From assembly GCF_056746865.1 (NCBI RefSeq), contig NZ_CM163382.1: a stretch of DNA of 64,000 nt; one strand, given 5' to 3'. This document shows, piece by piece, positions 19,258-64,000 of this stretch. The position numbers were made by a program, and so were the translations under genes. The notes under the pieces are model-generated. The model ran no database searches, was not told the DNA's origin, and was given only the letters and a program-made list of their open reading frames with translations. Each line of letters opens with the position of its first letter. The first letter of the stretch is position 1.

Positions 19258-19935
19258 AATGCGCCTATAAGGCTCTCTTACCAGCCGCGCCCTAACAGGC
19301 GCACACGATCTGACATTTGCATCCAACTTCGTTACTTACGGCCCGTAAACGGGCTGCCCGGATAGGGAATCGATAACTGCTCTCCCATTTTATCCTCTTC
19401 AAGCTGGTGCTTTATGTAATCCTGTATCTTCGCCGTGTTCTTACCCACCGTATCGACGTAGTACCCTCTGCACCAGAACTCCCTGTTCCTGTATTTGAAT
19501 TTCAAATCACCAAACTGCTCGTAAAGCATCAGACTGCTTTTCCCTTTCAGATATCCCATAAAGCCGGATACGCTCATTTTGGGCGGGATCTCCACAAGCA
19601 TATGGATATGATCTGCACAGCATTCAGCTTCCAGAATCCGTACACTTTTCCACTCACACAGCTTTCTCAAAATACTGCCTATTGCTCTACGCTTCTCTCT
19701 GTAGAACACCTGTCTTCGGTATTTTGGCGCAAATACTATGTGATATTTACAGTTCCATCGGGTGTGCGCTAAGCTCTTTTCGTTCCCCATTGGGACCCCC
19801 TTTTGATTTCTTGTTTGACACTTGCAGTTGCCAGACCGCAAGGTGTTTTAACAAATCAAAAGGGGTTTTAATAACTGGCTTAAAGCTGAAAGCTTTCCGG
19901 AACCCCCAGCCTAGCTGGGGGTTTTCTGTGCACAA
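19258..19935 (-). mobile_element. IS200-group insertion sequence (IS200/IS605 family); boundaries approximate, about +/-40 bp
   Basis: Contains a 152-aa IS200 TnpA ORF plus upstream hairpins (cccccagcctagctggggg at 19893-19911) typical of IS200 left end; no terminal inverted repeats, as expected for this family. Confidence 0.7.
19332..19790 (-). CDS. tnpA: IS200 transposase TnpA (Y1 HUH single-strand transposase)
   Basis: 152 aa from ATG at 19790 (MGNEKSLAHTRWNCKYHIVFAPKYRR...); HIH motif and C-terminal catalytic Tyr (GYYVDTVG); near-identical to remembered Salmonella IS200 TnpA. Confidence 0.9.
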   Translation of the reverse strand: MGNEKSLAHTRWNCKYHIVFAPKYRRQVFYREKRRAIGSILRKLCEWKSVRILEAECCADHIHMLVEIPPKMSVSGFMGYLKGKSSLMLYEQFGDLKFKYRNREFWCRGYYVDTVGKNTAKIQDYIKHQLEEDKMGEQLSIPYPGSPFTGRK

Positions 19936-51461: not shown

Positions 51462-53258
51462 ATGTTTGATAAATATAGAAAAACTCTGGTAGCCGGAGCT
51501 GTGGCGATAACTCTGGGTTTGTCAGCACCGGGGGTGATGGCAGCAGGTTTTAAACCCGCACCACCTGCCGGGCAACTGGGTGCAGTCATTGTCGATCCCT
51601 ACGGCAATGCACCACTGACCGCTTTGGTTGACTTAGATAGCCATGTCATTTCTGATGTCAAAGTTACCGTCCATGGGAAGGGCGAAAAAGGCGTAGAAAT
51701 CAGCTATCCCGTGGGTCAGGAATCACTAAAAACTTATGATGGTGTACCGATTTTTGGTCTTTATCAGAAATTTGCTAACAAAGTGACCGTTGAGTGGAAA
51801 GAAAACGGCAAGGTCATGAAAGATGATTATGTGGTGCACACTTCGGCCATCGTCAATAATTACATGGATAACCGCTCTATCTCCGATTTACAACAGACCA
51901 AAGTTATTAAAGTCGCACCGGGTTTTGAAGATCGCCTCTATCTGGTTAATACCCACACCTTTACCGCCCAAGGTTCCGATCTCCACTGGCATGGTGAGAA
52001 AGATAAAAATGCCGGTATCCTTGATGCGGGTCCGGCAACCGGCGCACTACCTTTTGATATCGCGCCCTTTACTTTCATTGTCGATACCGAAGGTGAATAC
52101 CGCTGGTGGCTGGATCAAGACACTTTCTACGATGGTCGTGACCGCGATATCAACAAGCGTGGTTATCTGATGGGTATCCGCGAAACACCACGCGGCACCT
52201 TTACCGCTGTACAAGGTCAGCACTGGTACGAGTTCGACATGATGGGGCAGGTGCTCGAAGATCACAAACTACCGCGCGGATTTGCTGACGCCACTCATGA
52301 GTCCATTGAGACGCCTAATGGCACAGTATTGTTGCGCGTAGGTAAGAGCAATTACCGTCGCGATGACGGCGTACACGTCACCACCATTCGTGACCATATC
52401 CTCGAAGTCGATAAATCTGGTCGCGTTGTCGATGTATGGGATCTGACCAAGATCCTCGATCCGAAACGCGATGCACTGCTCGGCGCGCTGGATGCAGGTG
52501 CAGTTTGCGTTAACGTTGACCTTGCCCATGCAGGACAACAGGCAAAACTGGAACCGGATACACCGTTCGGCGACGCGCTGGGTGTAGGGCCAGGTCGTAA
52601 CTGGGCGCACGTTAACTCAATCGCCTATGACGCAAAAGATGACTCAATCATCCTCTCCTCTCGCCACCAGGGTGTTGTGAAAATTGGTCGTGATAAGCAA
52701 GTGAAATGGATCCTTGCGCCCTCTAAAGGTTGGGAAAAACCGCTGGCCAGCAAGCTGCTGAAACCGGTTGATGCTAACGGTAAGCCAATTACCTGTAACG
52801 AAAATGGCCTGTGCGAAAACTCAGACTTCGACTTTACCTACACCCAGCATACCGCCTGGATTTCCAGCAAAGGAACGCTCACCATTTTTGATAATGGCGA
52901 TGGGCGTCATCTGGAACAACCTGCCTTACCAACCATGAAATACTCCCGCTTTGTGGAATATAAGATTGATGAGAAGAAAGGCACCGTTCAGCAAGTGTGG
53001 GAATACGGTAAAGAACGTGGCTACGATTTCTATAGCCCGATTACCTCCATCATTGAATATCAAGCCGACCGTAACACCATGTTTGGCTTCGGTGGTTCTA
53101 TTCATTTGTTCGATGTCGGGCAGCCAACCGTCGGTAAGTTGAACGAAATCGATTACAAAACCAAAGAAGTGAAAGTGGAAATCGACGTGCTGTCAGATAA
53201 ACCCAATCAGACTCACTATCGTGCACTGTTAGTCCGTCCACAACAGATGTTCAAATAA
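51462..53258 (+). CDS. assT: Periplasmic arylsulfate sulfotransferase (ASST)
   Basis: 598 aa with Sec signal peptide; matches remembered AssT of uropathogenic E. coli. Confidence 0.85.
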   Translation: MFDKYRKTLVAGAVAITLGLSAPGVMAAGFKPAPPAGQLGAVIVDPYGNAPLTALVDLDSHVISDVKVTVHGKGEKGVEISYPVGQESLKTYDGVPIFGLYQKFANKVTVEWKENGKVMKDDYVVHTSAIVNNYMDNRSISDLQQTKVIKVAPGFEDRLYLVNTHTFTAQGSDLHWHGEKDKNAGILDAGPATGALPFDIAPFTFIVDTEGEYRWWLDQDTFYDGRDRDINKRGYLMGIRETPRGTFTAVQGQHWYEFDMMGQVLEDHKLPRGFADATHESIETPNGTVLLRVGKSNYRRDDGVHVTTIRDHILEVDKSGRVVDVWDLTKILDPKRDALLGALDAGAVCVNVDLAHAGQQAKLEPDTPFGDALGVGPGRNWAHVNSIAYDAKDDSIILSSRHQGVVKIGRDKQVKWILAPSKGWEKPLASKLLKPVDANGKPITCNENGLCENSDFDFTYTQHTAWISSKGTLTIFDNGDGRHLEQPALPTMKYSRFVEYKIDEKKGTVQQVWEYGKERGYDFYSPITSIIEYQADRNTMFGFGGSIHLFDVGQPTVGKLNEIDYKTKEVKVEIDVLSDKPNQTHYRALLVRPQQMFK

Positions 53259-53275
53259 TTAAGAAGGGAATAAAA

Positions 53276-53944
53276 ATGTCGAAATTAGGGATCTCATCAC
53301 TATTTAAAACCATACTGCTTACCGCAGCTTTGGCTGTTTCATTTACCGCTTCTGCATTTACCGAAGGCACGGATTACATGGTTCTGGAAAAACCTATTCC
53401 GAATGCCGACAAAACGCTGATTAAGGTATTTAGCTACGCCTGCCCGTTCTGTTACAAGTACGACAAAGCGGTTACCGGTCCGGTATCGGAAAAAGTGAAA
53501 GATATCGTTGCTTTTACTCCATTCCATCTGGAAACAAAAGGTGAATACGGCAAACAAGCAAGCGAAGTCTTTGCGGTCTTGATCAATAAAGATAAAGCAG
53601 CAGGTATTTCATTATTTGATGCTAACTCTCAGTTTAAGAAAGCCAAGTTTGCTTATTACGCGGCTTATCATGACAAAAAAGAACGCTGGTCTGATGGTAA
53701 AGATCCGGCTGCCTTTATCAAAACCGGACTGGACGCCGCAGGTATGAGTCAGGCCGATTTTGAAGCCGCGCTGAAAGAGCCTGCAGTTCAGGAAACGCTG
53801 GAAAAATGGAAAGCCTCTTATGAAGTTGCAAAAATCCAGGGCGTTCCGGCGTATGTCGTCAATGGTAAATACCTGATCTACACCAAGAGTATTAAATCTA
53901 TTGACTCAATGGCAGACCTTATCCGCGAGTTAGCAAGCAAATAA
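53276..53944 (+). CDS. dsbL: Periplasmic thiol:disulfide oxidoreductase, DsbA paralog (CPFC active site)
   Basis: 222 aa; signal peptide; CPFC motif read directly. Confidence 0.85.
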
Positions 53945-53958
53945 CAGGGAAACAGGCT

Positions 53959-54630
53959 ATGGGTATTAAGGGAATGTGGAAAGACCTTCGCACTTCACCG
54001 GTGGACACGCTGGTAAGATGGCAAGAACAACGTTTTTTGTGGTTGTTAATGGCCATTGCGATGGGCGCGTTAATTATCCTGGCGCACTCTTTCTTCCAGA
54101 TCTATCTCTACATGGCACCCTGTGAGCAATGTGTATACATTCGCTACGCCATGTTTGTGATGGTTATTGGAGGATTGGTTGCAGCGATCAACCCAAAGAA
54201 CATCATCCTAAAGCTAATTGGCTGCGTGATGGCATTTTACGGCAGCATTTTGGGACTGAAGTTTTCGCTCAAACTGAACGATATCCACCATGCAGTACAT
54301 AATCCGGATCCCGATTCACTGTTTGGCGTACAGGGTTGCTCTACCGATCCAACTTTTCCCTTTAACCTGCCGCTGGCACAGTGGGCACCAAATTGGTTCA
54401 AGCCTACCGGGGATTGTGGCTATGACGCACCAATCGTTCCTGATGGCGTCACACTGAGCAGCACGCAACAGTGGTTTGTGGAAATGTATCAGCAATCTGA
54501 AGGCTGGTATCTGCTACCACCATGGCATTTTATGAATATGGCTCAGGCTTGTATGCTGGCTTTTGGTATGTGTCTGGTGCTGCTGGTCATTATGAGTGGC
54601 GCATGGGCGCTTAAAATCATCAGAGGCTAA
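53959..54630 (+). CDS. dsbI: Membrane disulfide-bond oxidoreductase, DsbB paralog
   Basis: 223 aa; periplasmic-loop Cys pairs CEQC and C...C; multiple TM helices. Confidence 0.85.
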
Positions 54631-54638
54631 CTCAGCAA

Positions 54639-54675
54639 CACCCGAAGCCAGTCGTTCTGGCTTCGGGTTCTTTTA
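54639..54675. terminator. Bidirectional terminator between dsbI and ygiD
   Basis: acccgaagccagtcgttctggcttcgggt hairpin then tcttttatt. Confidence 0.7.
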
Positions 54676-55464
54676 TTAACCTATCTGCACCGACAGCATA
54701 CTTAAACTGCCCATTTCTATACCATCGACCGGAATGGTAATTGGCTCCTGCCCATCCCACGCACCTAAGACATACAACAACGGCAGATAGTGCTCTGGCG
54801 TTGGATTCGATAACGCGCCACCTTCATGGTCGAGATAATTCACCAGAGGATGCTGCTCTACCGGCCCTTGCCACGTCAGATTCGCTTTCACATACTCATT
54901 AAACGACATCGCCCACGGATACGGTGAACTATCACCGTGCCACTTCACCGTACGCAGGTTATGCACCACGTTACCGCTGGCGACCAACATTATTCCTTCA
55001 TCCCGCAGCGCTGCCAGTTTGCGCCCCATTTCGAAATGCCAGGCGGCAGGTTTGCTACTGTCGATACTCAACTGCACCATCGGGATATCCGCTTGCGGAT
55101 ACATCTTAATCAGCACGCCCCACGAGCCGTGGTCAAAGCCCCAGGCTTCTTTATCCAGCGTCACCGGGACCGGCGCTAACAGCTCAACCAGATGCTGTGC
55201 CAGCGCAGGCGAACCCGGAGCAGGATAATGCGTGTCGTACAGCGCCTGCGGGAAGCCACCAAAGTCATGAATCGTGGGCGGCGTCTCCATCGCGGTCACT
55301 CCTGTTCCACGGGTAAACCAGTGAGCCGAAACCACCACAATCGCTTGCGGGCGTGGCAATGTCATCCCCAACTTCTGCCAGCTGCGGGTATACAAATTAT
55401 CTTCCAGCACGTTCATCGGACTACCGTGACCTAAAAACAATGCTGGCATACGTGTTGAAGACAT
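54676..55464 (-). CDS. ygiD: Extradiol ring-cleavage dioxygenase, 4,5-DOPA dioxygenase-like
   Basis: 262 aa from ATG at 55464 (MSSTRMPALFLGHGSPMN...). Confidence 0.9.
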   Translation of the reverse strand: MSSTRMPALFLGHGSPMNVLEDNLYTRSWQKLGMTLPRPQAIVVVSAHWFTRGTGVTAMETPPTIHDFGGFPQALYDTHYPAPGSPALAQHLVELLAPVPVTLDKEAWGFDHGSWGVLIKMYPQADIPMVQLSIDSSKPAAWHFEMGRKLAALRDEGIMLVASGNVVHNLRTVKWHGDSSPYPWAMSFNEYVKANLTWQGPVEQHPLVNYLDHEGGALSNPTPEHYLPLLYVLGAWDGQEPITIPVDGIEMGSLSMLSVQIG

Positions 55465-55606
55465 GATGATATCCTTAACTAAAGGTGTCATTTTGATATC
55501 CTCACAATACGCTTGTTCGGCGGAGTAAGAACCCGGATAACAATGATGATGATCATCAGTTATTTTGACGATCTGCCTGAAGGTGAAGATTTATAAGGAG
55601 TTGTCG

Positions 55607-56380
55607 ATGTCAGTACCTCTCATTCTGACCATACTGGCGGGGGCAGCCACGTTTATTGGCGCGTTTCTCGGCGTTCTCGGGCAAAAACCCTCGAACCGCT
55701 TACTGGCGTTTTCGCTAGGATTTGCGGCGGGGATCATGTTGCTCATCTCATTAATGGAAATGCTTCCTGCCGCACTAGCAGCTGAAGGAATGTCGCCTGT
55801 GTTGGGTTATGGAATGTTTATCTTCGGTCTGCTTGGCTATTTTGGCCTGGACCGCATGTTGCCACATGCGCATCCGCAGGATTTAATGCAAAAATCGGTG
55901 CAGCCGTTGCCAAAATCGATCAAGCGCACAGCCATTCTGCTCACTCTCGGCATCAGTCTGCATAACTTCCCGGAAGGGATTGCCACCTTTGTCACTGCGA
56001 GCAGCAACCTGGAGCTGGGCTTTGGCATCGCACTGGCCGTTGCGTTACACAATATTCCTGAAGGTCTGGCGGTTGCAGGCCCGGTTTACGCGGCAACGGG
56101 GTCTAAACGCACCGCGATTCTGTGGGCGGGGATTTCTGGACTGGCAGAAATTCTTGGTGGTGTGCTGGCGTGGTTAATCCTCGGTAGCATGATTTCCCCG
56201 GTGGTCATGGCGGCAATCATGGCGGCGGTTGCAGGAATTATGGTGGCGCTCTCGGTTGATGAATTAATGCCGCTCGCCAAAGAGATTGACCCTAATAATA
56301 ACCCCAGCTATGGCGTACTATGTGGAATGTCAGTGATGGGATTCAGTTTAGTGCTGCTACAAACGGCGGGAATTGGTTAA
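55607..56380 (+). CDS. zupT: ZIP-family zinc (divalent metal) transporter
   Basis: 257 aa from ATG at 55607 ([10 protein letters not shown]...). Confidence 0.95.
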
Positions 56381-56437
56381 AAACAACATCAGAAGTTGTC
56401 CAGCGCATGGACAACTTCTGCCAGCTTCACGAAAGCC

Positions 56438-56608
56438 TTATTCTACCTTTTCGGCTGTCTCTTCTCTCGTACTGTTTAAGTATTTGTTCCGCGCTTCAAG
56501 CAGTGCGTCTCTGTCCTGGCGAAACGCCCGACAATAACGTTTCAAATGCAGGAAATAACCCACCACAACCAGAGCAATCAATACAATCCAGTACCAGGCG
56601 ATAAACAT
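56438..56608 (-). CDS. Candidate small single-pass membrane protein, 56 aa from ATG (track ORF starts at upstream TTG)
   Basis: N-terminal hydrophobic helix MFIAWYWIVLIALVVVGYFL then charged tail; aagggtaaaagg precedes ATG; AT-rich upstream region. Confidence 0.45.
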   Translation of the reverse strand: MFIAWYWIVLIALVVVGYFLHLKRYCRAFRQDRDALLEARNKYLNSTREETAEKVE

Positions 56609-56802
56609 CCTTTTACCCTTAATATTTAACAATACTAAACATTTAGCGCATAAATTTCACATATCCTTTTTCGGATATATTCATATGGTCGCATAATAAC
56701 GGAACAATTATATGATTTTGATCATAATGAAAAAGAATGCCTGATATTAATGAAATTTTCTCATAGAAAGAGAAGCGGAATTAACATCTTGCATAGCAGG
56801 GA

Positions 56803-56840
56803 AAAATAAAAACCGAAGCCTGCTACAACTTCGGTTTCTT
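56803..56840 (-). terminator. Rho-independent terminator downstream of ribB
   Basis: aaccgaagcctgctacaacttcggtt hairpin with flanking A/T runs. Confidence 0.65.
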
Positions 56841-56869
56841 GATTAAGGCAGTAAATTAAGCAGCGGTTT

Positions 56870-57523
56870 TCAGCTGGCTTTACGCTCATGTGCCTGACGA
56901 TAAGCCACCAGGTCTTCAATAGTCACGAGCGCCATATTGTGTTTATTGGCAAACTCAATGCACTCTGGTGCACGCGCCATCGTGCCATCGTCATTAGTCA
57001 GCTCACACAGCACACCAGCCGGTTTAAAGCCTGCCAGCGTCATCAGATCAATAGTCGCTTCAGTATGGCCGCCACGCGTCAGTACACCACCAGCCTGAGC
57101 GCGAAGTGGGAAAACGTGGCCCGGGCGATTCAGATCAGAAGGTTTTGCGTCATCGGCAATCGCTGCGCGAACGGTCGTAATACGGTCAGCGGCAGAAACA
57201 CCGGTAGTCACACCTTCAGCCGCTTCAATGGTCACGGTAAAACCGGTGCCATAGGCGCTGGTGTTATTTTCTACCATCATTGGCAGATCAAGTTGTTTAC
57301 GGCGATCTTCAGTAATGCACAGGCAAACAATACCGCTACCGTGGCGAATGGTCAGCGCCATCTGCTCAACGGTCATGGTTTCTGCCGGGAAGATCATATC
57401 GCCTTCGTTTTCACGGTCTTCATCATCAAGCACCATTACACCGCGTCCTTCACGCAGCGCAGCCAGTGCATTTTCAACACGTTCGAAAGGCGTACCAAAA
57501 GAGGAAAGTAGCGTCTGATTCAT
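56870..57523 (-). CDS. ribB: 3,4-dihydroxy-2-butanone 4-phosphate synthase
   Basis: 217 aa. Confidence 0.95.
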
Positions 57524-57599
57524 GGTAAAAAAACCTCACTAAAATTATGGTTACCAGAATCAGGGCAGTCTTAGGAGTGGCGGCATATAGCCAAAATAA

Positions 57600-57770
57600 C
57601 GTGAGCGGGTCCATGCCCGACAGAATCGTTACTCTCTCCCATCCGGACTCTAACCGTCGGCCCCGGAATTACACCGGATCTGCTGTCCTTTGAGTTCGCA
57701 CCCAAAGCGCTCGCGGGCTTTCAACTGAGTTGATTTACCGCCGGTGGGGAATTTCGCCCCGCCCTGAGAA
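57600..57770 (-). promoter_or_regulatory. FMN riboswitch (RFN element) in the ribB leader
   Basis: Minus-strand leader contains conserved RFN segments gggcggggcgaaattccccaccggcgg ... ccgggg ... ggatgggagag upstream of ribB; boundaries approximate. Confidence 0.8.
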
Positions 57771-57896
57771 TAAGCGGATTCACTATAACGCTAATGATTA
57801 GCGCCAGCAACGCATAGCTTCACATAATTCTGGTTTATGACTTACCCTTATCGCACTACAATGGCACTCAACACCTATCAGTACAGGGAAACTACA

Positions 57897-58196
57897 ATGA
57901 TTGACCCGAAAAAAATTGAGCAAATCGCTCGCCAGGTTCACGAATCAATGCCTAAAGGAATCAGGGAGTTCGGGGAAGATGTGGAGAAAAAAATCCGCCA
58001 AACCCTACAAGCGCAACTGACGCGTCTCGATCTGGTGAGCCGCGAAGAATTCGACGTACAGACGCAAGTCCTGTTACGGACTCGTGAGAAACTGGCATTA
58101 CTGGAGCAGCGCATCAGTGAACTGGAAGCGCGCAATAATTCGGTAGCAGATCTTCAATCTCCTCCGGCTATCCCGCCTATTGATAAAGCAGAATAA
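57897..58196 (+). CDS. ubiK: Ubiquinone biosynthesis accessory factor (BMFP/YqiC coiled-coil family)
   Basis: About 99 aa from ATG at 57897 ([13 protein letters not shown]...). Confidence 0.85.
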
Positions 58197-58204
58197 AGCA
58201 ACAC

Positions 58205-58228
58205 AAAAACGGGCCAGACGGCCCGTAA
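58205..58228. terminator. Hairpin terminator between convergent ubiK and glgS
   Basis: acgggccagacggcccgt stem with T-run on minus strand. Confidence 0.6.
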
Positions 58229-58230
58229 TA

Positions 58231-58431
58231 TCAGTGTTCTAATTCAAGTTCTCTGGTTTGCATCATCTGTTGGCAATACCAGGCATAACGTGCGCAAAAC
58301 CAGGTTCTATGTTCTTCATCCATGTTACCAGTAACGGCCAGAATATCGACCGGGCGACCTTCTGCGTGCATTCTGGCAAAACTACGCGCCAGGAAATCGA
58401 AATTATTTAAAGAATTAAGACTATGATCCAT
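58231..58431 (-). CDS. glgS: Surface-composition regulator GlgS
   Basis: 66 aa from ATG at 58431 ([16 protein letters not shown]...). Confidence 0.9.
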
Positions 58432-58699
58432 AAGCACATCCTCCGGTTATCGCATACCTTTTAAGGCCATATGCTTTTTCTGATTTCAGTATTCCCCAAT
58501 CAGTGTAGTGCCTTTAAACATAACGTGCGTAAATATATTGTCCCCGATCACACTTTTTAGTGAAAAATAAAAAACCATATTAAAAGACTTTCTCTTCCAG
58601 AACTTCTCTAACATGTGTTATTATTAACAAAGATAAATGTAAGCAAGGAAACTATCCTAAAGTAAATATTGCGTCACTAAATGGACATTGGAGTGACAT

Positions 58700-59329
58700 A
58701 TGATTTTATTCGCCGACTATAACACCCCTTATCTTTTCGCTATTTCCTTTGTACTGTTGATCGGCCTTTTAGAAATTTTTGCGCTTATCTGCGGTCATAT
58801 GCTCTCCGGTGCTCTTGATGCACATCTTGACCATTATGATTCCATAACCACAGGTCATATTAGCCAGGCACTTCATTATCTCAATATCGGAAGATTGCCA
58901 GCTCTCGTCGTTCTCTGCTTACTGGCTGGTTTTTTTGGTCTTATTGGCATCCTGTTGCAGCATACCTGCATCATGGTCTGGCAATCACCACTCTCGAACC
59001 TGTTCGTGGTTCCTGTCAGTTTACTGTTTACGATTATTGCGGTGCATTATACCGGTAAAATAGTTGCGCCCTGGATTCCACGCGACCATAGTTCAGCTAT
59101 TACAGAAGAAGAATATATTGGTAGCATGGCGTTAATTACCGGACATCAAGCGACTTCAGGTAATCCCTGCGAAGGAAAACTCACCGATCAATTTGGCCAA
59201 ATACATTATTTACTACTGGAGCCTGAAGAAGGAAAAATTTTCACTAAAGGAGACAAAGTGTTAATTATTTGCCGACTTTCTGCAACGCGATATTTGGCGG
59301 AAAACAATCCCTGGCCCCAAATATTGTAA
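58700..59329 (+). CDS. yqiJ: NfeD-like inner membrane protein
   Basis: 209 aa with N-terminal TM helices and C-terminal OB-like domain. Confidence 0.85.
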
Positions 59330-59355
59330 TTTATTAATCAAAAGGAAATTTAATA

Positions 59356-61017
59356 ATGGATGATATTGTTAATTCTGTGCCCTCCTGGATGTTTACCGCA
59401 ATTATTGCCGTATGCATTCTGTTTATTATTGGAATTATTTTCGCCAGGCTCTATCGTCGCGCTTCGGCAGAGCAAGCTTTTGTTCGTACTGGTTTAGGTG
59501 GGCAAAAAGTGGTAATGAGCGGTGGCGCAATCGTGATGCCGATCTTTCATGAAATAATCCCCATCAATATGAATACCCTGAAGCTGGAAGTCAGCCGCTC
59601 AACCATTGATAGCCTGATTACGAAAGATCGTATGCGCGTCGATGTCGTGGTCGCTTTCTTTGTGCGGGTAAAACCTTCAGTTGAAGGGATTGCCACCGCC
59701 GCCCAGACGCTGGGACAACGCACCCTGTCGCCTGAAGACTTACGTATGTTGGTTGAAGATAAATTTGTCGATGCCCTCCGTGCAACAGCTGCACAAATGA
59801 CCATGCATGAGTTACAGGATACCCGCGAGAACTTCGTGCAGGGAGTACAAAATACCGTAGCTGAAGATCTGTCGAAAAACGGCCTGGAACTGGAAAGCGT
59901 TTCACTTACCAACTTTAACCAGACGTCGAAAGAACATTTCAATCCTAACAACGCCTTTGACGCCGAAGGTTTAACCAAGCTGACGCAGGAGACGGAGCGC
60001 CGTCGTCGCGAACGTAACGAAGTTGAACAGGATGTAGAAGTTGCGGTGCGTGAGAAAAACCGTGATGCGCTTTCGCGCAAGCTGGAGATTGAACAACAAG
60101 AAGCGTTTATGACGCTTGAGCAGGAGCAGCAGGTTAAAACCCGTACCGCTGAGCAGAATGCGAAAATTGCGGCTTTTGAGGCCGAGCGTCGTCGGGAAGC
60201 AGAGCAGACGCGAATTCTGGCTGAACGACAGATTCAGGAAACGGAAATCGACCGCGAACAGGCCGTCCGTTCCAGAAAAGTTGAAGCTGAACGTGAAGTT
60301 CGCATTAAAGAGATCGAACAGCAGCAGGTCACCGAAATCGCCAACCAGACGAAATCGATCGCTATTGCCGCCAAATCGGAACAGCAGTCACAAGCGGAAG
60401 CGCGTGCCAACCTTGCACTTGCAGAAGCGGTAAGCGCCCAGCAAAACGTTGAAACCACTCGCCAGACCGCAGAAGCCGATCGTGCTAAACAAGTTGCCCT
60501 AATCGCTGCCGCGCAGGACGCGGAAACCAAAGCAGTCGAACTGACCGTCCGGGCGAAAGCTGAAAAAGAAGCCGCAGAGATGCAGGCGGCGGCAATCGTT
60601 GAGTTAGCCGAAGCTACGCGTAAAAAGGGTCTGGCGGAAGCAGAAGCGCAACGTGCGCTGAACGACGCTATCAACGTACTTTCTGACGAGCAAACCAGCC
60701 TTAAATTCAAACTGGCGCTATTACAATCATTACCTGCGGTAATAGAGAAATCCGTTGAGCCGATGAAGTCCATTGACGGCATCAAGATTATTCAGGTCGA
60801 TGGATTAAACCGAGGTGGCGCTGCGGGGAATGCGGCATCAGGCAGCGTTAGTGGCGGAAACCTGGCAGAACAGGCATTGTCTGCCGCCCTTTCTTACCGC
60901 ACACAGGCACCACTGATTGACTCCTTGCTCAATGAAATCGGTGTTTCTGGCGGCTCGCTGGCGGCATTGACTTCACCCTTAACATCAACAACTCCCGTCG
61001 AAGAAAAAACAGAGTAA
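59356..61017 (+). CDS. yqiK: SPFH/band-7 (flotillin-like) membrane protein with long Ala/Glu/Arg-rich coiled coil
   Basis: 553 aa; N-terminal TM helix, SPFH domain, extended EAE/AEA-rich region. Confidence 0.9.
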   Translation: MDDIVNSVPSWMFTAIIAVCILFIIGIIFARLYRRASAEQAFVRTGLGGQKVVMSGGAIVMPIFHEIIPINMNTLKLEVSRSTIDSLITKDRMRVDVVVAFFVRVKPSVEGIATAAQTLGQRTLSPEDLRMLVEDKFVDALRATAAQMTMHELQDTRENFVQGVQNTVAEDLSKNGLELESVSLTNFNQTSKEHFNPNNAFDAEGLTKLTQETERRRRERNEVEQDVEVAVREKNRDALSRKLEIEQQEAFMTLEQEQQVKTRTAEQNAKIAAFEAERRREAEQTRILAERQIQETEIDREQAVRSRKVEAEREVRIKEIEQQQVTEIANQTKSIAIAAKSEQQSQAEARANLALAEAVSAQQNVETTRQTAEADRAKQVALIAAAQDAETKAVELTVRAKAEKEAAEMQAAAIVELAEATRKKGLAEAEAQRALNDAINVLSDEQTSLKFKLALLQSLPAVIEKSVEPMKSIDGIKIIQVDGLNRGGAAGNAASGSVSGGNLAEQALSAALSYRTQAPLIDSLLNEIGVSGGSLAALTSPLTSTTPVEEKTE

Positions 61018-61211
61018 ACCCTCTTCTATGAATAATCCCTGGCCCAAAAAGCCGGGGATTTTTTATATCTGCGTTCCGCTAAAAGGTGCAAATGATCAGG
61101 CTGTTGCAGCATTTTGCGTGACCGCTCGGGGAAGGGAAAACTGCCTCTGGGAAAGCGTTGCGCGGGGTCTGGCGCTCATCAACAATCGGGGAGTCAGCAG
61201 GGGGCTGAAAC

Positions 61212-61352
61212 GGGAAAGCCCCTCCCGAAGAAGGGGCCTTATAGAAGGAAAGGGTTATGATGAAGCTCGTCATCATACTGATTGTGTTGTTACTAGTAAG
61301 TTTCCAGGCTTATTAACAACCAATTCAGAGGGGGGAGAAATCCTCCCTTACC
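61212..61352 (-). ncRNA. sibD: Sib antisense sRNA (antitoxin), copy 1; ends approximate
   Basis: Antisense to ibs ORF; minus-strand terminator hairpin gccccttcttcgggaggggc plus T-run at about 61217-61240. Confidence 0.55.
61257..61316 (+). CDS. ibsD: Ibs type I toxin, 19 aa (MMKLVIILIVLLLVSFQAY)
   Basis: Hand-translated; hydrophobic 19-mer typical of Ibs; ggaaaggg SD-like sequence upstream. Confidence 0.7.
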   Translation: MMKLVIILIVLLLVSFQAY

Positions 61353-61588
61353 CTTGTTCCTTTACTTTAGGTTGAAAAAAAATCAGCGTCAAGAAGGTTT
61401 CTCTATCCCACATCCCTGGCCCAAAAAGCCGGGGATTTTTTATATCTGCGTTCCGCTAAAAGGTGCAAATGATCAGGCTGTTGCAGCATTTTGCGTGACG
61501 GCTCGGGGAAGGCAAAACTGCATCAGGGAAAGCATTGCGCGGGGTCTGGCGCTCATCAACAATCGGGGAGTCAGCAAGGGGCTGAAAC

Positions 61589-61729
61589 GGGAAAGCCCCT
61601 CCCGAAGAAGGGGCCTTGTATAAGGAAAGGGTTATGATGAAGCTGGTCATCATACTGATTGTGTTGTTACTCGTAAGTTTCGCAGCTTATTAACAGCCAA
61701 TCAGAGGGGGGAGAAATCCTCCCTCACCC
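61589..61729 (-). ncRNA. sibE: Sib antisense sRNA (antitoxin), copy 2; ends approximate
   Basis: Same architecture as copy 1. Confidence 0.55.
61634..61693 (+). CDS. ibsE: Ibs type I toxin, 19 aa (MMKLVIILIVLLLVSFAAY)
   Basis: Hand-translated; differs from copy 1 by Q17A. Confidence 0.7.
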   Translation: MMKLVIILIVLLLVSFAAY

Positions 61730-61812
61730 TTGTTCCTTTACTTTAGGTTGAAAAAAAAACAGCGTCAATAGGCCTGCCAGGTTCGAAGCGAGATCTGTGA
61801 ACCGCTTTCCGG

Positions 61813-63246
61813 TTAGCCTTTTTTATCCTGTTGGATCTTCTTGATGATGTTGGTCGTCGAGCAACCGTCTTCAAAGTTGAGCACCAACACTTCGCCACCG
61901 TTGGCCCAGACTTCTTTACTCCCGGCAATCTCTTCTGGTTTATAGTCGCCGCCTTTCACCAGCAGGTCTGGCAAGATCCCGGCGATCAGGCGCTGCGGCG
62001 TGTCTTCTTCAAACGACACCACCCAGTCGACCGCTTCCAGTGCACCCAGCACAATCATACGCTGCTCGAGAGGGTTAACGGGGCGGGAATCCCCTTTCAG
62101 CCGTTTGGTGGAAGCATCGCTGTTGACGGCGACAATCAAACGGTCACCCAGTTTACGGGCATTTGCCAGATAAGAGACGTGCCCGGCGTGCAGGATGTCA
62201 AAGACGCCATTGGTCATTACCACCTTTTCGCCGCGTTTACGCGCCGCCGCCACAGCAAGCTTCAGTTCCTCTTCGGTCATCACACCAAAGCCGGTATCTG
62301 CACGTCCACGTACTGCGTTTTCCAGCTCGATCGGCGAAACCGTGGATGTCCCCAGTTTGCCGACCACTACGCCTGCCGCCGCATTAGCAAAGAAGCAGGC
62401 TTCTTCCAGCGAATTACCCGCCGCCAGCGTTGCCGCCAGGACACCAATCACCGTGTCGCCCGCACCGGTAACGTCATACACTTCCTGCGCCTGAGTTGGC
62501 ATATGCAGCGGCGTTTTGCCCGGTTGCAGCAGCGACATACCCTGTTCGGAACGGGTCACTAACAGAGCCGAGAGTTCGTAATCGGCAATCAGTTTCATGC
62601 CGCGTTCAACAATCTCTTCTTCGGTCTTACATTTACCGACAACAGCTTCAAATTCCGAGAGATTCGGCGTTAACAGCGTAGCGCCGCGGTAGCGCTCAAA
62701 ATCGGTGCCTTTTGGATCAATCAGCACCGGAACGCCCGCTTTACGCGCCAGTTGGATCATCTGCTGCACGCTTGCCAGCGCACCTTTCGCGTAGTCAGAG
62801 AGCACCAGCGCGCCAATCGAACTCAGCGCCTGATTAATCCGCTCGTGCAGCGGCTGCGGATCAACCCCTTCGAAACCTTCTTCAAAATCCAGACGGATCA
62901 GCTGTTGGTTGCGGGAAAGTACCCGTAATTTGGTGATGGTCGGATGCGTCGGTACAGAAACGAAGTCGCATTTGACGTTGACGTCGGCCAGAGATTTACT
63001 CAGCGCGCGCGCTGCATCGTCAATGCCCGTCAACCCGACCAGGCGTGCATTAGCACCGAGAGAAGCGATATTCATCGCCACGTTAGCCGCGCCGCCCGGA
63101 CGTTCTTCGATGGTATTCACTTTAACCACGGGCACCGGCGCTTCCGGCGAGATACGACTGGTGGGGCCGTACCAGTAACGATCCAGCATCACATCACCAA
63201 CCACCATCACTCCTGCACGTTCAAACTCTGGCAGCGTTACTTTCAT
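61813..63246 (-). CDS. hldE: Bifunctional D-beta-D-heptose 7-phosphate kinase / D-beta-D-heptose 1-phosphate adenylyltransferase
   Basis: 477 aa; N-terminal ribokinase-like and C-terminal cytidylyltransferase-like domains. Confidence 0.95.
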
Positions 63247-63293
63247 TCCTGTCTCCTGAGAGATTCAAAATTTGCGCGCGATAATACCATACT

Positions 63294-64000
63294 TCATTCT
63301 TCCACCAGCCACTTCTGCCAGCTTGCCCGCACCAGTTCACGCTCTGCGGTGAAGCAATCCTCCGACACATGGCCCGGCAATTCCTGTAATGCCAGATGAT
63401 GAAGTTCATCGCGCAGCGTCGTGTAAGCACGGGTCAGCGCCATCGCTTCCTGCTCTTCCATAATGTCGTTTTGCGCCAGTAGTTCCAGAATGCGCACGTT
63501 GTCTGACCAGCGCGTTAACTTCGGTTTTTCATGAGCGTAGCGCAACACCAGATATTGAGTAATAAATTCGATATCGGTAATTCCGCCTTCATCGGCTTTG
63601 ATATCAAAGCGATCGCGATGTTTATTGCCGAGATGGGCACGCATTTTCTCGCGCATTTCCCGCACTTCTGTTTGCAGGGTTTTGCCTTCGCGCGGCAGCG
63701 TCATAATCTCCCGGCGTACTGCGTCAAAGTGCGCGGTGAGCTGCGGATCGCCGTACACTACACGCGCACGCACCAGCGCCTGATGTTCCCACGTCCAGGC
63801 CTCGTTTTTCTGATAATCGGCAAACGCTTCTGCGGAGGTAACCAGCATTCCCGCCGCCCCGGACGGACGCAGTCTAGCATCCACTTCATACAAAATGCCG
63901 GAAGAGGTTCGCGTACTGAACAGATGCATAATGCGTTGCGCCAGACGCAGATAAAACTGTCGCCCGTCGATTTCCCGCTCGCCGTCAGTCATCGCATCCA
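63294..64000 (-). CDS. glnE: Glutamine synthetase adenylyltransferase, C-terminal part (gene continues beyond window end)
   Basis: Open minus-strand frame to window edge; track ORF 63294-63992 is an internal Met of a longer protein. Confidence 0.85.

Follow-up and report, generated by a model that had tools for sequence, protein, structure and literature searches.

Several proteins of the SPFH superfamily assemble into closed cages, which range in size from the 24-mer of HflK/C and the 26-mer of QmcA to the 44-mer of flotillin (PMC12478178). The wall of the human flotillin cage is a right-handed barrel of 44 helices packed side by side, each 186 residues long and carrying A/G-E repeats without heptads, and it is held together by charge clusters of ionic hydrogen bonds (PMC11260169). 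A cage has also been solved for Escherichia coli QmcA-YbbJ, whose operon encodes a cytoplasm-facing SPFH protein and a membrane protein with an NfeD-type OB fold (8Z5G; PMC12478178, PMC10434171). Here, we examine the paralogous E. coli operon yqiJ-yqiK in a 64,000-nucleotide (nt) stretch of contig NZ_CM163382.1 (assembly GCF_056746865.1), hereafter the window, within which all coordinates are numbered. The operon, its pairing of an NfeD-like with an SPFH protein, and the Ala/Glu-rich helix of YqiK have been known since 2009, when the pairing was named NfeD2-SPFH2a and was placed in the same SPFH2/NfeD2 operon type as Bacillus subtilis YuaF-YuaG (NfeD2-FloT) (PMC2636767). We propose that YqiK probably forms a flotillin-type cage anchored in the membrane, with the NfeD-like YqiJ as its partner, a reading to which we assign a probability of roughly 0.72.

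The gene pair (Table 1) is the E. coli yqiJ-yqiK operon, described and annotated earlier. An earlier reading of the window made from its letters alone (hereafter, the sequence-only reading) had recognized an NfeD-like/SPFH flotillin-type pair, and this identification is correct: Pfam, the RefSeq annotation, and the profile and fold matches all agree. The two reading frames also lie where that reading had put them, as confirmed by the open reading frame (ORF) listing. By megablast, the segment is present in 5,391 of 5,426 complete E. coli genomes, in which the RefSeq names are OB-fold-containing protein for yqiJ and flotillin family protein for yqiK; both genes are thus routinely annotated. In the window, 26 nt separate the stop codon of yqiJ from the start codon of yqiK. 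The sequence GGAG lies 8 to 11 nt upstream of the yqiJ ATG, and AAGGA precedes the ATG of yqiK. The arrangement extends well beyond E. coli: in 36 of 36 loci drawn from other species of Enterobacterales, Burkholderiaceae, and Alphaproteobacteria, a YqiJ-like ORF precedes the yqiK homologue on the same strand, with a gap of 17 to 80 nt. The two genes are therefore adjacent and co-oriented across taxa, as expected of an NfeD-SPFH operon.

YqiK is a member of both the SPFH superfamily and the flotillin family, as it exceeds the cut-offs of the Pfam models Band_7 (PF01145; 67.6 bits versus 23.6, residues 39-192) and Flot (PF15975; 136.5 bits versus 27, residues 406-530, over the full profile). An AlphaFold2 model of the monomer was built on 100 diverse homologues (mean predicted local distance difference test [pLDDT] score, 79.7). 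In this model, helices at residues 200-323, 345-441, and 444-471, about 250 helical residues in total, are followed by a disordered linker (472-502) and short C-terminal helices. Among the structures in PDB, Foldseek ranked the flotillin complexes 9l3g and 9bq2 first (E about 2-3e-15), followed by prohibitin, HflK/C, stomatin, erlin, major vault protein, and E. coli QmcA-YbbJ (8z5g). A profile of the YqiK family matched human flotillin-1 among PDB sequences at E = 4.5e-15, spanning both the SPFH and the helical parts; single-sequence phmmer searches of PDB sequences with YqiK and with YqiJ gave no match. Helix 444-471 and the segment at 473-483 align with flotillin-1 where its helical region ends and a conserved segment follows, and residues P469 and G483 are almost invariant across the family. 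By comparison with the flotillin structure, YqiK residues 473-483 may correspond to the β-strand of the cap (PMC11260169).

The closest solved relatives of YqiK are, therefore, the human flotillin-1/2 cage structures (9BQ2, 9L3G), with which it shares the SPFH domain, a long Ala/Glu-rich helix, the conserved C-terminal segment, and the lack of heptads, at a sequence identity of about 20%. The two differ in their membrane contact, which in YqiK is a true transmembrane helix at the N terminus and in flotillin consists of hydrophobic surfaces and lipidation, and in the length of the helical region (about 240-270 residues in YqiK versus 186). Unlike flotillin-1/2, YqiK would presumably form homo-oligomers and associate with an NfeD-like protein. 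The helix of QmcA, a short SPFH1 protein of the stomatin type, is much shorter than that of YqiK, and QmcA is a weaker structural match (E = 5.8e-08); its operon also has the reverse gene order, with qmcA upstream of ybbJ (PMC10434171). HflK and HflC share the SPFH fold and the helical wall with YqiK and are strong fold matches (7vhq, 9cz2, 7wi3), but they face the periplasm, form a hetero-oligomer, enclose FtsH, and have no NfeD partner (PMC10434171, PMC2636767).

The partner protein YqiJ resembles an NfeD protein in both of its parts. Its AlphaFold2 model (mean pLDDT, 77.6) has three long predicted membrane helices (residues 6-44, 65-94, and 100-125), which provide the membrane segment, and a C-terminal domain for which the top three Foldseek matches in PDB are all NfeD C-domains with a five-stranded OB-fold barrel. 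The best of these is Pyrococcus horikoshii 1510-C (3wwv; target-normalized template modelling [TM] score, 0.78; root-mean-square deviation [rmsd], 2.3), the second-best is B. subtilis YuaF (2k14; TM score, 0.68), and the third is MTH693 (2k5h). NCBIfam gave no match for YqiJ, and a profile of its family found nothing meaningful among PDB sequences.

Given these similarities, we propose the following assembly. YqiJ, co-transcribed with YqiK, would be a small polytopic membrane protein with a cytoplasmic OB fold. The N-terminal helix of YqiK would enter the inner membrane, and the SPFH domains would form a ring on its cytoplasmic face. Many parallel helices of roughly 240-270 residues, held together largely by charge pairing, would then line up side by side into a single-layer barrel wall, which the C-terminal helix and strand region would close, so that a patch of membrane is enclosed. 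Within that patch, YqiJ may bind through its OB fold and stabilize the oligomer. Assembly of the cage, its closure, the contact with YqiJ, and any physiological role are suggested here by homology to solved SPFH complexes. We know of no solved assembly of a bacterial long-type (SPFH2) flotillin with its NfeD partner.

Several observations weigh against a flotillin-type cage. The structural matches of YqiJ are borderline (E = 1e-3 to 4e-3), and the Pfam NfeD model is not matched by YqiJ at E ≤ 0.01, a threshold at which Pfam returned only YqiJ_N, YqiJ_OB, and a sub-threshold Tetraspanin match. Given these results, "NfeD-like" is the accurate term for YqiJ, and it is the wording already used for its family in 2009 (PMC2636767). 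YqiK scores 90.6 bits with the NCBIfam FloT equivalog (NF058507), far under the cut-off of 700 bits, and thus is a relative of FloT but not an ortholog-level one. In both respects, the pair is unlike YuaF-YuaG. The YqiK model represents only a monomer, and its helix is broken at residues 324-344, where pLDDT falls below 50. Because the long helices fail to superpose, YqiK and flotillin align with low TM scores (0.27-0.40) and a very large rmsd. Deletion of yqiK has caused no reported defect in growth, adhesion, or biofilm formation, and two studies could detect native YqiK only marginally or not at all (PMC10434171, PMC6788730, PMC2636767). Finally, an open clamp architecture, and not a closed cage, has been proposed for Staphylococcus aureus FloA-NfeD (PMC11222466).

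By analogy with the S. aureus proteins, YqiJ-YqiK could be a clamp or holdase, in which small open oligomers with flexible arms, helical and of low complexity, hold unfolded, membrane-associated clients under stress. The S. aureus locus has the same operon grammar, an NfeD-like gene followed by a flotillin gene, and the OB-like domain of its NfeD was fitted where the helical region of FloA begins (PMC11222466). The low-confidence or disordered YqiK residues 324-344 and 472-502 could conceivably serve as hinges. However, YqiK is a member of the long flotillin/FloT-like subfamily, whereas FloA is of the short type. The structures that YqiK matches best, by fold and by profile, form closed cages, and so does the paralogous E. 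coli pair QmcA-YbbJ, as a 26-mer (8z5g; PMC12478178). In addition, the S. aureus maps need higher-resolution validation according to their authors (PMC11222466). We therefore consider a clamp unlikely. The break at residues 324-344, a segment with neither Pro nor Gly, is probably an artefact of modelling a monomer and not a real hinge.

The function of YqiK in E. coli is poorly defined, as the sequence-only reading had noted: a possible link to motility and ampicillin tolerance has been described, and overexpression alters cell morphology (PMC10434171, PMC6788730, PMC2636767). We also considered, and ruled out, a role in a defence system, since neither YqiJ nor YqiK had a match in PADLOC-DB at E ≤ 0.01.

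The sequence-only reading had described the helical region of YqiK as an unusually long, heptad-like coiled coil of roughly 250 low-complexity residues. The low complexity is real. Residues 193-470 consist of 18.0% Ala, 16.5% Glu, 10.1% Gln, and 9.0% Arg, residues 197 to 460 are free of Pro, and both peptides quoted as examples are present (EAERRREAEQ at 275-284 and AEAEAQRAL at 427-435), in line with the about 250 helical residues predicted. The low complexity is compositional and does not reflect a repeat array, given that Tandem Repeats Finder detected no array in the yqiK gene of the window, a direct-repeat search of the gene returned only short pairs at chance level, and BLASTP of the helical region against itself revealed no internal repeat.

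The length of the helix is normal for its family. In a set of 121 full-length proteins, each representing a 50%-identity cluster, the median is 573 amino acids (aa), 77% of the proteins are longer than the 553 aa of YqiK, and the longest Pro-free stretch has a median of 288 residues, compared with 262 in YqiK. Relatives of 684-897 aa occur among the same family matches, and "giant" members of 800-1000 aa were noted in 2009 (PMC2636767). The helical region of YqiK is longer only when set against the 186-residue wall helix of human flotillin (PMC11260169), and the description "unusually long" is not borne out.

Neither is "heptad-like." We compared hydropathy periodicity with that of shuffled sequences, over the whole helical region and in 49-residue windows, a test that differs from a formal coiled-coil prediction. 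Over the whole region, hydrophobic power at a period of 3.5 residues is below the shuffle mean (z = −0.4 to −0.6). Across residues 200-416, z is at most 0.2 at periods of 3.5, 3.6, and 3.67 in every 49-residue window, and a weak period-3.5 signal appears solely at residues 424-472 (z = 2.3). That signal, the Pro-free composition rich in Ala, Glu, Arg, and Gln, and the coiled-coil predictions and expanded coiled-coil regions reported in older work on the family (PMC2636767) are what can be said for a classical heptad coiled coil, in which two to a few strands of exceptional length would intertwine at residues about 200-470 and drive oligomerization. Such a structure is, however, difficult to reconcile with the lack of heptad periodicity elsewhere in the region, with a length below the family median, and with the heptad-free, side-by-side packing of the solved flotillin wall (PMC11260169). 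Natural insertions and deletions (indels) in the helix, which are described below, are also not biased toward multiples of 7 residues (3 of 39). We regard a classical coiled coil as improbable, and the YqiK helix is not an unusually long example of one. On the cage model, which follows from homology to solved SPFH assemblies, the Ala/Glu/Arg/Gln-rich stretch would instead be a barrel-wall helix.

Along the helix as a whole, opposite charges pair at i/i+3 and i/i+4 more often than expected (z = 4.1). The two halves of the helix differ in composition, with residues 205-323 being 46% charged, 10% Ala, and 20% ILMVF and residues 345-441 being 29% charged and 31% Ala. The composition of the charged half and its own enrichment in charge pairs (z = 2.8) could also point to an ER/K-type stable single α-helix, which would serve as a rigid spacer instead of contributing to an oligomer interface. 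Yet the equivalent charged helices of flotillin make inter-subunit ionic contacts in the barrel (PMC11260169), and the near-invariance of the YqiK helix exceeds what a generic spacer would need, making this explanation very hard to favor.

The near-invariance is evident from the Nei-Gojobori estimates of synonymous (dS) and nonsynonymous (dN) divergence between the yqiK gene of the window and that of E. coli K-12 (comparator genome, NZ_CP043197.1). For codons 1-148, dS is 0.068 and dN is 0; for codons 149-480, dS rises to 0.396, with a dN of 0.0046 (dN/dS about 0.012); and for codons 481-553, dS is 0.595 and dN is 0.052. Against E. albertii, the helical region has a dS of 0.96 and a dN of 0.0026, and across Escherichia species its dN is at most 0.008 at dS of 0.4-1.0. 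Purifying selection on the helical sequence is thus very strong (dN/dS about 0.01), and few parts of YqiK are as constrained, given a tiny dN despite high dS in comparisons with both K-12 and E. albertii. Such constraint is what one might expect of a packing interface in which the register of the helices matters.

YqiJ and YqiK differ from their K-12 counterparts at 1 and 8 residues, respectively, with equal lengths, and five of the eight YqiK differences fall within linker residues 484-502, at residues 492-499. In part, these changes reflect a pair of 1-nt indels (nt 60833 and 60838) that compensate for each other. Nucleotide divergence from K-12 reaches 26% in 60800-60899, making the linker hypervariable.

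The length of YqiK is effectively fixed. Both the window and K-12 encode a 553-aa protein, versions that each occur on at least 1,000 contigs, and the same length recurs in the type or reference genomes that represent E. whittamii, E. albertii, and three further Escherichia lineages. In 59 complete genomes taken evenly down the match ranking, the helical region spans 834 nt in 57 and 833 nt in 2, and none carries an in-frame indel. A protein search nevertheless revealed many near-identical variants of 527-566 aa in E. coli, Shigella, and E. albertii. When placed by pairwise global alignment, these variants define 39 distinct in-frame indel events, 36 of which fall within residues 200-471, and this region accounts for 49% of YqiK (binomial P = 1e-8). 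Many of the events duplicate a segment in tandem or remove one between short direct repeats. They include variants of (EQ)n at residue 254 (+2, +4, +6, and −2; 132 contigs in total), the addition of AEKEA once or twice at residue 401 (373 contigs in total), a 9-residue deletion of residues 347-355 (79 contigs), and a 13-residue segment, AERRREAEQTRIL, that is found both duplicated and deleted. One AEKEA allele, when read as DNA, is a clean 15-nt tandem duplication. The comparison of helix length among strains, which the sequence-only reading had put forward as a test, thus has a mixed outcome: the usual length does not vary, but rare in-frame alleles exist and concentrate in the helix.

One could take these alleles as evidence for contingency-type behaviour of yqiK, with repeats that expand and contract to tune the protein adaptively. 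The clustering of indels in the helix, the (EQ)n variants, and the 15-nt and 39-nt tandem duplications and deletions fit this interpretation, as does the presence of some length variants on tens to hundreds of contigs. The window allele, however, has no tandem DNA repeat array, the 553-aa length is kept across the other five Escherichia, none of the 59 sampled genomes departs from it by an in-frame indel, and sporadic slippage between short direct repeats in a tolerant region would produce the same pattern. Adaptive tuning therefore seems most improbable to us, and the alleles are better described as rare slippage products that the helix preferentially generates or tolerates.

We speculate, with little confidence, that the wall helix of YqiK is a register-specific charge zipper, in which the sequence is nearly frozen and the length can be altered by slippage, so that alleles would shift the height of the cage, its subunit number, or its closure. 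The natural in-frame alleles span −26 to +13 residues, including (EQ)1-5 and AEKEA ×1-3. If the conjecture were true, they would represent a ready allelic series for relating helix length to the geometry of an SPFH cage. Beyond this conjecture, our additions to what was known are modest and descriptive: the constraint on the helix, the rare indel alleles restricted to it, and a deeply diverged synonymous allele class in a mosaic segment. The non-heptad helix, the extreme purifying selection, and the clustering of length variants could guide construct design and interpretation in a structural study.

The diverged allele class is apparent at the nucleotide level. The yqiK genes of the window and K-12 differ at 114 of 1,662 nt, 101 of them at third codon positions, and the differences concentrate from about nt 59800 onward. 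Across 5,423 genomes, the helical region is at least 99% identical to the window allele in only 126, 95-99% identical in 497, and 90-95% identical in 4,800; the last band lies mostly at 92.6-93.0% and takes in K-12, O157:H7, ST131, and O26 strains. The window allele is therefore a minority class. It lies in a mosaic segment (54673-64000): identity to the K-12 comparator is 99.96% and 99.6% over 5187-50977, 97.8% over 54.7-58.1 kb, and 95.5% over 58.2-64 kb. One mosaic breakpoint falls within yqiK near nt 59800, and divergent patches are also found in glgS, the sib/ibs units, and hldE. No donor for the divergent 3′ part of yqiK is evident among the other Escherichia species sampled, to every one of which it is 87-92% identical.

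The composition of the helix also produces a long ORF on the opposite strand (Table 1), which the sequence-only reading had rightly dismissed as spurious. Its frame is shifted by one base from the sense frame, an offset that turns the codons of yqiK into a Ser/Ala/Cys-rich product (sense to antisense: Ala to Ala, 38; Glu to Ser, 26; Gln to Cys, 14; Arg to Arg, 10). When the codon order was shuffled, the antisense open stretch averaged 116 codons, and the observed 185 codons were reached in 4.7% of shuffles. The ORF has no family match in Pfam or NCBIfam, and in both E. whittamii and E. albertii a stop codon breaks it. Its conservation (92-97%) is also lower than that of the sense frame across the shared span (98-100%). 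We rejected it as a real gene on these grounds.

TABLE 1 Positions of yqiJ, yqiK, their predicted domains, and neighbouring features in the window. CDS, coding sequence; FMN, flavin mononucleotide.
Feature	Position	Strand	Basis
FMN riboswitch	57627-57775	−	RF00050, 120.9 bits; 5′ of ribB (56870-57523, −), as expected
glgS	58231-58437	−	ORF listing and Pfam/NCBIfam
yqiJ CDS, 209 aa, NfeD-like partner	58700..59329	+	ORF; Pfam YqiJ_N 57.9 bits, YqiJ_OB 54 bits; RefSeq annotation of homologues
YqiJ membrane domain, residues 6-125	58715..59074	+	AlphaFold2; Pfam YqiJ_N residues 8-115
YqiJ C-terminal OB-fold β-barrel, residues about 140-202	59117..59305	+	Model strands 143-202; Pfam YqiJ_OB 139-198
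yqiK CDS, 553 aa, flotillin-family SPFH protein	59356..61017	+	ORF; Pfam Band_7 67.6 bits, Flot 136.5 bits; RefSeq annotation
YqiK N-terminal membrane-anchor helix, residues 10-32	59383..59451	+	AlphaFold2 helix; residues 1-38 21% Ile plus Ala, Val, Phe
YqiK SPFH (Band 7) domain, residues 33-190	59452..59925	+	Pfam 39-192; pLDDT 96-98; aligns to flotillin-1 residues 8-152
YqiK long helical region, predicted cage wall, residues 200-441	59953..60678	+	AlphaFold2; composition; aligns to flotillin-1 wall region
Antisense ORF, 183 aa, TTG start, Ser/Ala/Cys-rich (S 38, A 38, C 14)	60234..60785	−	
YqiK helix 444-471 and segment 473-483 (IDGIKIIQVDG)	60685..60804	+	AlphaFold2; profile alignment to flotillin-1 residues 363-390
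YqiK Gly/Ala/Ser/Asn-rich disordered linker, residues 484-502	60805..60861	+	pLDDT <50; differences from K-12
Likely operon terminator, GC-rich hairpin and T run 17 nt 3′ of yqiK stop	61034..61060	+	Consensus scan, 10-pair stem, 6 GC pairs; pattern match alone
SIB RNA 1	61242-61392		RF00113; the two SIB RNAs score 150.2 and 142.5 bits, gathering score 56
SIB RNA 2	61619-61768		RF00113, same scan as SIB RNA 1
ibs ORFs, 19 aa, hydrophobic, MMKLVIILIVLLLVSF(Q/A)AY	61257-61316 and 61634-61693		Each opposite one SIB RNA

The pair is flanked by glgS on one side and by two Ibs/Sib units on the other, as had been read from the sequence; each unit consists of a SIB RNA opposite a 19-aa hydrophobic ORF, the arrangement of an Ibs/Sib type I toxin-antitoxin system. 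The K-12 comparator has the same order (glgS, yqiJ, yqiK, two ibs-sib units, and hldE) and the same protein lengths of 209 and 553 aa, but it carries the fimbrial genes ygiL-yqiG-yqiH-yqiI upstream of glgS, between ubiK and glgS. These genes are absent from the window, where ubiK (57837-58196) almost abuts glgS. The terminator-like hairpin after yqiK belongs to the duplicated sib/ibs repeat unit, the second of which begins near 61410, and the ORFs that start at 61028 and 61354 share one peptide-level string. The yqiK terminator and the boundary of the sib/ibs repeat may therefore coincide. In NZ_CM129864.1, a copy 100% identical to the query (718869-722945) has an IS5-family transposase among the features under the yqiJ-yqiK match, so the operon in that genome is interrupted or flanked by an insertion sequence.

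Elsewhere in the window, an ORF for an IS200-like Y1 transposase (PF01797, 130 bits; 19335-19841, −) lies in a stretch of ~0.7 kb that the K-12 comparator lacks. Three further ORFs (51462-54630, +), located between ygiD and ygiC, have no counterpart in that genome; their products are an arylsulfotransferase (PF05935, 454 bits), a DsbA-like thioredoxin, and a DsbB-like protein, and the segment resembles an assT-dsbL-dsbI-type island.

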